43,924 bases of DNA, taken from IMG/VR virus record IMGVR_UViG_2609460125_000010; one strand, given 5' to 3'. The position numbers were made by a program, and so were the translations under genes. The notes under the pieces are model-generated. The model was not told the DNA's origin, made no database searches, and saw only the letters and a program-made list of their open reading frames with translations. Below, in pieces: positions 10,172-11,147 of this stretch (position 1 is its first letter; the number at the start of each line of letters is the position of its first letter). Origin of the DNA: a virus. Taxonomy: Duplodnaviria > Heunggongvirae > Uroviricota > Caudoviricetes.

Positions 10172-10824
10172 TGAGTAATAAATATTGTCAGGCACTGGTG
10201 GAACTGCGGAACAAACCAGCCCATGAACTGAAGGAAGTGGGCGATCAGTGGCGCACGCCAGATAACATTTTCTGGGGAATTAACACCCTGTTTGGTCCGT
10301 TTGTTCTGGATCTGTTCACTGACGGTGATAACGCCAAATGTGCCGCGTATTACACGGCGGAAGACAACGCGCTGGCGCATGACTGGTCAGAACGTCTTGC
10401 GGAGCTTAAAGGTGCTGCCTTTGGTAATCCCCCATACAGCCGCGCCAGTCAGCATGAGGGGCAATACATCACCGGCATGCGTTACATCATGAAGCATGCC
10501 AGTGCCATGCGTGATAAAGGCGGGCGCTATGTTTTCCTGATCAAAGCTGCCACCAGCGAAGTGTGGTGGCCGAAAGACGCAGACCATATTGCTTTTATTC
10601 GCGGGCGTATTGGTTTTGAACTGCCTGCCTGGTTTATCCCGAAGGATGAGAAGCAGGTGCCGACAGGCGCTTTCTTCGCTGGTGCTATTGCTGTTTTCGA
10701 CAAGACCTGGAAGGGACCGGCAATCAGCTACATCGGGCGCGATGAACTTGAGGCATGTGGTGAAGCCTTTCTGGTGCAGGTTCGCCAGCAGGCGGAAAAA
10801 CTGGTCAGGGAGATGGCGGCATGA
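10171..10824 (+). CDS. phage DNA N6-adenine methyltransferase (Dam-like)
   Basis: Catalytic NPPY motif (AAFGNPPYS); TAATG start overlap with the upstream gene; typical nin-region position. Confidence 0.75.
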   Translation: MSNKYCQALVELRNKPAHELKEVGDQWRTPDNIFWGINTLFGPFVLDLFTDGDNAKCAAYYTAEDNALAHDWSERLAELKGAAFGNPPYSRASQHEGQYITGMRYIMKHASAMRDKGGRYVFLIKAATSEVWWPKDADHIAFIRGRIGFELPAWFIPKDEKQVPTGAFFAGAIAVFDKTWKGPAISYIGRDELEACGEAFLVQVRQQAEKLVREMAA

Positions 10825-11147
10825 CGACGTTAACTCAATGCCAGCAGCAGGTGCTGGATATGCTGATTTCTTACCAGAAAGAGCGTGGCTTTCCGCCAAC
10901 CAATCAGGAGGTGGCAACCATGCTGGGATACCGTTCAGTGAATGCAGCGGTAGAGCATCTTCGTGCACTGGAGAAAAAAGGCGTCATCACGATAAAGCGT
11001 GGCGTGGCCCGGGGGATAACGCTTCATACCGCGGTGAAGGACGACGACAGCGAGGCGGTCGGGATTATCCGCGCACTGCTTGCCGGTGAGGAAAACGCCA
11101 GGCTGCGTGCAGCCTACTGGTTACATGAGAGAGGCCTGAAAGTATGA
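10821..11147 (+). CDS. LexA N-terminal DNA-binding-domain-like protein lacking a peptidase domain
   Basis: QQQVLDMLISYQKERGFPPTNQEVATMLGYRSVNAAVEHLRALEKKGVITIKRGVARGITL aligns by eye with the LexA winged-helix N-terminus ([51 protein letters not shown]); only 108 aa. Confidence 0.6.
   Translation: MTTLTQCQQQVLDMLISYQKERGFPPTNQEVATMLGYRSVNAAVEHLRALEKKGVITIKRGVARGITLHTAVKDDDSEAVGIIRALLAGEENARLRAAYWLHERGLKV

Follow-up and report, generated by a model that had tools for sequence, protein, structure and literature searches.

What could a phage do with the DNA-binding half of LexA alone? The question is raised by a 43,924-nucleotide stretch of Caudoviricetes DNA (IMG/VR record IMGVR_UViG_2609460125_000010, hereafter the window), in which a gene for a small LexA-like protein, here called mini-LexA, lies between genes for a Dam methyltransferase and a RusA Holliday-junction resolvase. 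The reading that we tentatively favour is that mini-LexA acts as a RecA-insensitive binder or repressor at LexA-type operators, dimerised by a helical hairpin of its own. The SOS response is the induction trigger of the phages that carry this gene and, in Stx phages, the trigger of toxin release, and an uncleavable LexA look-alike present at induction could alter the SOS programme of the host, the way in which prophages compete, or the decision to lyse.

A LexA winged helix with a phage-specific tail

The first-pass annotation of the window, made from its letters and open reading frames, had described the protein as a homologue of LexA's DNA-binding domain devoid of the autoprotease domain, and profile searches, pairwise alignment and structure prediction all bear this out. 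The match to the Pfam family LexA_DNA_bind (PF01726) reaches 69 bits, where the cut-off is 23.7 (E=3e-19), far beyond chance, with residues 1-65 of mini-LexA covering model positions 1-65 of 65. In a phmmer search against PDB sequences, the N-terminal domain of Escherichia coli LexA (1lea) aligned without gaps to residues 2-70 (E=6e-16). An AlphaFold (AF2) model computed from 17 family members (mean predicted local distance difference test score, pLDDT, of 81) contains helices at residues 6-22, 28-35 and 40-52 and strands at residues 56-58 and 66-68. It superposes on the LexA structures 1lea and 3jso with a root-mean-square deviation of 1.1-1.3 Å over 66-69 columns at about 51% identity (Foldseek E about 1e-6), and thus has the LexA winged helix-turn-helix fold.

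The protein ends at residue 108, and no match to Peptidase_S24, the C-terminal domain with Ser119 and Lys156 in LexA, was found by Pfam search of these 108 residues. Likewise, the NCBIfam lexA equivalog model TIGR00498 is matched at 70.6 bits, below its cut-off of 110.95, and over model positions 1-91 of 203 only. Lacking the S24 peptidase, mini-LexA cannot be inactivated by RecA*-stimulated self-cleavage in the manner of LexA. The PHROG profile phrog_362 (‘transcriptional repressor’) matches the protein over its full length, residues 1-108 aligning with profile positions 1-106 of 106 (E=1.4e-58). PADLOC returned only a marginal CARF-HTH match (E=3.6e-4), which leaves mini-LexA outside the known defence systems.

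The winged helix is followed by a short linker modelled at low confidence (residues 71-73) and by a two-helix hairpin that was modelled with a pLDDT of 87-88 for residues 81-100. Residues I82, R84, L86, L87, A88, E90, E91, N92, A93, R96, A97, W100, L101, E103 and R104 of this hairpin are conserved or invariant, and the tail is retained in relatives of 105-135 residues that are 40-50% identical to mini-LexA. None of the LexA chains of the PDB covers it in the Foldseek comparison. The hairpin is amphipathic, with at least seven conserved hydrophobic residues, and is plausibly a dimerisation module. Its first helix still aligns with the hinge and cleavage-site region of LexA (IIRALLAGE vs VGRVAAGE), which points to an ancestral lexA gene that was cut short just past the cleavage site. 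Residual homology thus extends to the position of the LexA cleavage site, Ala84-Gly85, aligned with A88-G89 of mini-LexA. This pair sits in a predicted helix of a protein that has no protease domain and, since it is not conserved in the relatives, it is not read here as a mimic of the cleavage site.

These features also bear on the further suggestion of the first-pass annotation that the protein could be a dominant-negative partner of LexA, i.e. that it forms heterodimers with the host repressor and poisons it. Homology is the one point in favour of this idea, residues 78-90 being those that still match the hinge and cleavage-site part of LexA. In LexA, dimerisation is the task of the C-terminal domain (PMC3091678), precisely the domain that mini-LexA lacks, so that a dimer of the LexA type is not to be expected. 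Moreover, LexA structures contain nothing that corresponds to the hairpin, and the Ala-Gly pair is not conserved in relatives. We therefore consider a dominant-negative partnership very improbable. As a separate observation on chain architecture, five proteins (P0132, P0133, P0148, P0152 and P0156) were found to have two tandem LexA DNA-binding domains per chain, also without S24, and may be single-chain pseudo-dimers.

Mini-LexA is under strong purifying selection. Among 56 alleles, 50 synonymous and 13 non-synonymous variants segregate, corresponding to a ratio of non-synonymous to synonymous polymorphism (pN/pS) of 0.08. The gene does resemble a truncated lexA, and many frameshifted or fused variants are present in databases, as might be expected of a decaying fragment without function. 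Such decay is nevertheless effectively refuted by this selection, by 95-100% identity across 2233 E. coli genomes, and by the conservation of both the tail and the synteny slot.

The gene had been presented as a discovery, which it is not, as it already carries LexA-family labels in phage and E. coli records. Positions 4880-17186 of the window align colinearly with Shigella phage SfII (identity 99.6-99.97%), and mini-LexA is 100% identical to SfII_44 (SfII 32722-33048), annotated “LexA DNA binding domain protein”. Altogether, 50 phage records carry copies at 95-98% identity, including those of SfV (orf42), SfIV, cdtI, mEp460 (mEp460_046), Stx2a- and Stx2c-converting phages and several induced E. 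coli prophages. In the named lambdoid carriers, too, it is flanked by Dam and RusA, and the ‘LexA family transcriptional regulator’ of phrog_362 in SfII, SfV, mEp460, cdtI and the Stx2a/Stx2c phages is the same gene. The 2233 E. coli genomes with the gene represent about 41% of 5426 complete genomes, and there the NCBI annotation pipeline PGAP labels it “LexA family transcriptional regulator”. This abundance, together with the presence in Stx2a/Stx2c-converting and Shigella serotype-converting phages, gives the gene medical relevance. A full-text literature search found no experimental or functional study of the enterobacterial mini-LexA. The protein is therefore already catalogued and very common, apparently functionally uncharacterised, and it belongs with the phage-encoded truncated LexA homologues. 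The details added here are the conserved two-helix hairpin absent from LexA, the purifying selection, and the replacement of a DNA-contacting glutamate across the family.

Recognition helix and candidate operators

The residues by which LexA contacts DNA are Ser39, Asn41, Ala42, Glu44 and Glu45 (PMC3091678). In mini-LexA, the recognition helix reads R38-S-V-N-A-A-V-E-H-L47, so that four of these five contacts are kept and Glu44 is replaced by Val; outside the contacts, Pro40 of LexA is likewise replaced by Val. The wing residues R64-G65-I66 are identical to those of LexA and invariant in the family, and recognition helix and wing together are better conserved than any other part of the protein. 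The relatives compared here are of two types, namely 80 related loci which with the window make up the 81 loci of Type A, and 34 distant loci of Type B whose proteins are 42-65% identical to mini-LexA. The variants of the helix are listed in Table 1. A scan of genome contigs with P0126 gave only three loci (44-45% identity, DNA-binding domain only), and the two of these that have the canonical helix NAAEEHL served as controls for canonical LexA. A classification of positions 44 and 45 by regular expression in 132 representatives was set aside, as it was confounded by metagenomic LexA fragments.

A scan of the 43.9 kb for CTGT-N8-ACAG, as advised in the first-pass annotation, yielded exactly one site, and with the 20-base consensus at up to three mismatches none of 100 shuffled sequences gave any match. 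The reverse complement of this box, TACTGTATATAAAAACAGTA, is identical in 20 of 20 positions to the boxes of E. coli umuD and sbmC (Table 4 in PMC3009722). By sequence, it is thus a genuine LexA operator. The box lies within the phage repressor gene cI, where it spans the linker codons 70-76 (N-T-V-Y-K-N-S) between the helix-turn-helix and S24 parts of the repressor. It was found in 79 of 80 IMG/VR loci with this cI allele, and in cI alleles of about 93% identity its arms are kept and its spacer varies. LexA bound at this place could act as a roadblock or control an internal promoter. A sigma-70 scan of both strands gave no promoter at the box, which would count against a role in repression, but the same scan also missed the promoters PRM and PR and is therefore uninformative rather than negative. 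Reading of the sequence by eye for an internal promoter, or for a cI product made up of the C-terminal domain only, gave nothing convincing.

How mini-LexA could use such operators is suggested by its build, i.e. a LexA winged helix, residual hinge sequence and a hairpin of two helices that is peculiar to the phage protein. Expression would occur only with early-right (pR) transcription, during lytic growth or after induction, alongside Dam and RusA. The hairpin would then pair two molecules, and the dimer would bind LexA-type palindromes with CTGT-like half-sites, including the umuD-type box in the phage cI gene and the SOS boxes of the host. With no S24 domain, it would remain on the DNA once host LexA has been destroyed. 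Repression would thereby be re-imposed, damping SOS functions, the LexA-controlled genes of rival prophages and/or transcription of cI. Fusions of LexA residues 1-87 to heterologous dimerisers such as leucine zippers repress SOS operators, which is the basis of the LexA bacterial two-hybrid system and supports the reading of mini-LexA as a repressor. Like mini-LexA, these fusions combine the LexA DNA-binding domain with a small dimerisation element and are insensitive to RecA; unlike mini-LexA, with its Val44 and its putative dimerisation, they are artificial and have the wild-type recognition helix. Further evidence for a repressor of this kind comprises the about 51% identity with the LexA domain and the close superposition on it, the four of five contacts, the invariant wing, the umuD-identical box, the SOS boxes next to the Type B genes (see below), the purifying selection, and the presence of the same recognition helix in 78 of 81 Type A loci.

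Several observations weigh against such a repressor of SOS boxes. Across the family, Glu44 has given way to Val or Ala and, in the largest subgroup of Type B, Glu45 to Leu as well; positions 43-45 vary by subfamily (AVE, AAE, VAL, IAE). A protein dedicated to the invariant SOS boxes of the host would be expected to keep Glu44 and Glu45. The loss of the former and the differences at positions 43-45 point to a specificity that has changed or diversified. There is also a precedent of a different kind. The gp6 protein of the Bacillus tectivirus GIL01 is a truncated LexA homologue which binds GaCACAn nTGTGaC and not the host LexA box, and which activates the late promoter P3 (Fornelos et al. 2018, PMC6182141). 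It is the only characterised truncated phage LexA homologue that was found and, compared by description, the closest analogue of mini-LexA. Both proteins keep the DNA-binding half of LexA and lack the autoprotease, and gp6 is the product of an early phage gene and acts after DNA damage. However, GIL01 is a tectivirus of a Gram-positive host and gp6 is related to Bacillus LexA (44% identity). Moreover, gp6 is described as a winged helix-turn-helix only, whereas mini-LexA adds a helical hairpin of 35 residues, and its activator function is demonstrated, whereas any function of mini-LexA is putative.

Mini-LexA could thus be a dedicated phage regulator like gp6, i.e. a captured LexA domain that has drifted to a phage-specific or other non-SOS operator and, independently of SOS boxes, activates or represses particular phage promoters in lytic development. 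We regard this as the main rival and a serious possibility that falls somewhat short of being probable. In addition to the family-wide loss of Glu44 and the differences between subfamilies, it is favoured by the helix RSVNTIAGHL of the divergent member P0084, by a dimerisation module unlike that of LexA, with which the spacing of half-sites could differ, and by the many carrier phages that have no SOS box nearby. On the other hand, Ser39, Asn41, Ala42 and, in most members, Glu45 are still LexA-like. Furthermore, pairs of CTGT and ACAG in both orientations at spacings of 0-20 were not enriched in the window over shuffled sequences, so that no alternative operator can be proposed. Occupation of SOS boxes, as put forward in the first-pass annotation, is therefore sustained in part: the four contacts, the umuD-identical box and the SOS promoters of Type B speak for it, while the loss of Glu44 and the binding of gp6 to a palindrome of its own speak against it.

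The association between the cI box and mini-LexA is strong. Mini-LexA is carried by all 13 full phage records with this cI allele, which represent 10 distinct phages of differing morphotypes, and also by 50 of the 57 IMG/VR loci with the cI box that could be assessed, despite differing replication modules in between. Nonetheless, and to the detriment of repression at the cI box, the remaining 7 of these 57 loci have no mini-LexA, other cI alleles are present in 37 of the 50 carrier phage records, and in 29 of the 80 related loci of Type A there is no CTGT-N8-ACAG within about 10 kb. Box and gene are thus separable, and linkage can by itself account for the association. The co-occurrence was accordingly downgraded as evidence of function, given the 7/57 and 37/50 exceptions.

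Two other strong SOS boxes were noted in carrier phages. The box TACTGTAAAAATAAACAGTG (L010, 14532-14551), which occurs in about 25 loci, overlaps with the start codon of a post-Q gene for a DNA methylase, and the box TACTGTATTTATGAACAGTG (L067, 10767-10786; also in L038) precedes by about 100 bp a KilA-N (antirepressor-like) gene that itself comes just after rusA.

It is tempting to extend the proposed repressor activity to the fate of the induced phage, although this extension is speculative and, in its full form, rather unlikely. In induced SfII-, SfV- and Stx2-type phages, mini-LexA, dimerised by its hairpin, might be a RecA-proof replacement for LexA that re-occupies SOS operators after LexA cleavage. 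At the cI box, it might block renewed repressor synthesis and so commit the phage to lysis; at the boxes of the host and of rival prophages, it might shut off mutagenic repair, colicins and competing antirepressors under LexA control. In Klebsiella-type relatives, it might form an SOS-damping cassette, itself induced by SOS, together with DinI and UmuD-like proteins.

SOS-box promoters in distant relatives

The 34 Type B loci, which come from IMG/VR, are closest to Klebsiella phages, and their mini-LexA proteins belong to the same phrog_362 (E=1.3e-38 for the relative in L086). The gene occupies the same slot, before DUF968 and Q, and is directly preceded in 28 of 34 loci by a small conserved open reading frame, orfX (phrog_1813), which gave no significant match against PDB sequences. 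A near-consensus SOS box is present upstream in 29 of 34 loci, at -0.44 to -3.5 kb. A CTGT-N8-ACAG box lies within 1.5 kb in 26 of 34 loci and, under a stricter pattern, within 1.6 kb in 24 of 34. In L098, a TTGACC...TATACT promoter is located just past a terminator, and the box overlaps its -10 element. The typical unit consists of an SOS-box promoter, dinI (Pfam E=8e-22; 18 loci), orfX and mini-LexA, and another consensus box and a gene for a UmuD-like protein (phrog_3469) are found further upstream in 8 of the loci. Of the five loci without dinI (L086-L090), four still have the SOS-box promoter, orfX and mini-LexA, the exception being L089, in which the stricter pattern finds no box.

DinI and UmuD-like proteins are modulators of RecA* and of the SOS response, so that these neighbours are thematically consistent with an SOS-related role of mini-LexA. 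Weighing in the opposite direction, the unit of SOS box, DinI and orfX also occurs without mini-LexA, in SPN3UB, FSL SP-016, mEp237 and Chris1. Moreover, SOS-controlled expression in Type B fits a gp6-like regulator just as well as a repressor of SOS boxes, because gp6 is itself an early gene needed for activation of a late promoter after DNA damage.

Operon context and feature coordinates

The first reading had placed the gene in an operon with Dam and RusA in the nin region, and this assignment holds. ATGA overlaps at both junctions indicate that Dam, mini-LexA and RusA are translationally coupled. The gene order is cI, cro, cII, O-like, PerC-like, Dam, mini-LexA, RusA, KilA-N, DUF968/HNH and Q, and the position between replication genes and the Q antiterminator corresponds to the nin region of the early-right operon. 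Being encoded by a phage, in a lytic operon, is a further difference from E. coli LexA. The features of the locus are compiled in Table 1.

Table 1. Coordinates of mini-LexA, its neighbours and candidate operators in the window, with variants of the recognition helix in related loci.
Feature	Coordinates	Strand	Details
LexA-type operator, the only one in the window	7264..7283		TACTGTTTTTATATACAGTA; candidate target of host LexA, possibly of mini-LexA
cI repressor gene hosting the SOS box	6800..7492	-	Helix-turn-helix residues 7-64, S24 peptidase residues 104-218; annotation of SfII_37
Dam N6-adenine methyltransferase, 5' partner	Start 10138 or 10171, end 10824	+	Pfam Dam E=1.6e-45; annotation of SfII_43
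ATGA overlap, Dam stop / mini-LexA start	10821-10824	+	Sequence reading
mini-LexA coding sequence	10821..11147	+	108 aa; ATG start at 10821, stop ends at 11147
LexA-type winged helix-turn-helix, residues 1-68	10821..11024	+	Gapless LexA alignment, AF2 elements, Foldseek
Conserved two-helix hairpin, residues 74-87 and 93-103	11040..11129	+	AF2, family conservation
ATGA overlap, mini-LexA stop / RusA start	11144-11147	+	Sequence reading
RusA Holliday-junction resolvase, 3' partner	11144..11533	+	Pfam RusA E=6e-15
SOS cassette of Type B, loci L086-L119	About 0.3-2.4 kb upstream of match; e.g. L098 7297-8327, L108 6837-8327		
Helix residues 37-50, window type			YRSVNAAVEHLRAL; 78 loci
Helix residues 37-50, window-type variant			YRSVNTAVEHLRAL; 3 loci
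Helix residues 37-50, several distant groups			xSSPNAAAEHLKAL-like; about 15 loci
Helix residues 37-50, distant group			VRSANAIAEHIRAL; 2 loci
Helix residues 37-50, L098-type group within Type B			VSSPNAVALHLRAL; Glu45 also lost; 17 loci
Helix of genuine LexA in control loci			NAAEEHL kept; 2 loci

This arrangement raises the alternative that mini-LexA is not primarily a sequence-specific regulator and works by contacting proteins or by binding DNA non-specifically, for instance as an accessory to Dam, RusA or DUF968/HNH. RusA adjoins mini-LexA in 81 of 81 Type A loci, its place beside RusA and DUF968 does not vary within Type A, DUF968 is also adjacent in Type B, and the translational coupling to Dam and RusA would suit an accessory protein. 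However, Dam is missing from 27 of 81 Type A loci, only 5 of the 34 distant loci have a detected RusA, and gene order in the nin region is conserved for many unrelated genes, so that adjacency is weak evidence. Moreover, conservation is highest in the recognition helix and wing, as expected of a specific DNA reader. An accessory role is thus unlikely.

Some observations on neighbouring genes were made in passing. The Dam gene of the window (10138-10824) goes by the name ‘phosphoadenosine phosphosulfate reductase’ in RefSeq phage records. It is matched by profile phrog_33262 over profile positions 283-492 only, through which the reductase name has apparently spread; the name is probably an annotation error. 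Directly before Dam, and two genes 5' of mini-LexA, positions 9677-10171 encode a homologue of PerC-family transcriptional activators (Pfam E=2e-9; phrog_1324). In loci that lack Dam (e.g. L067), this PerC-like gene abuts mini-LexA. PerC/Pch proteins regulate virulence loci of pathogenic E. coli. Further downstream, between Q and the lysis cassette, two leftward genes at 13719-14303 (-) and 14311-15333 (-) match the PADLOC candidate system PDC-M53 (PDC-M53B, E=7e-54; PDC-M53A, E=2e-32). The pair is annotated as hypothetical proteins in SfII, of which it is probably a defence moron.

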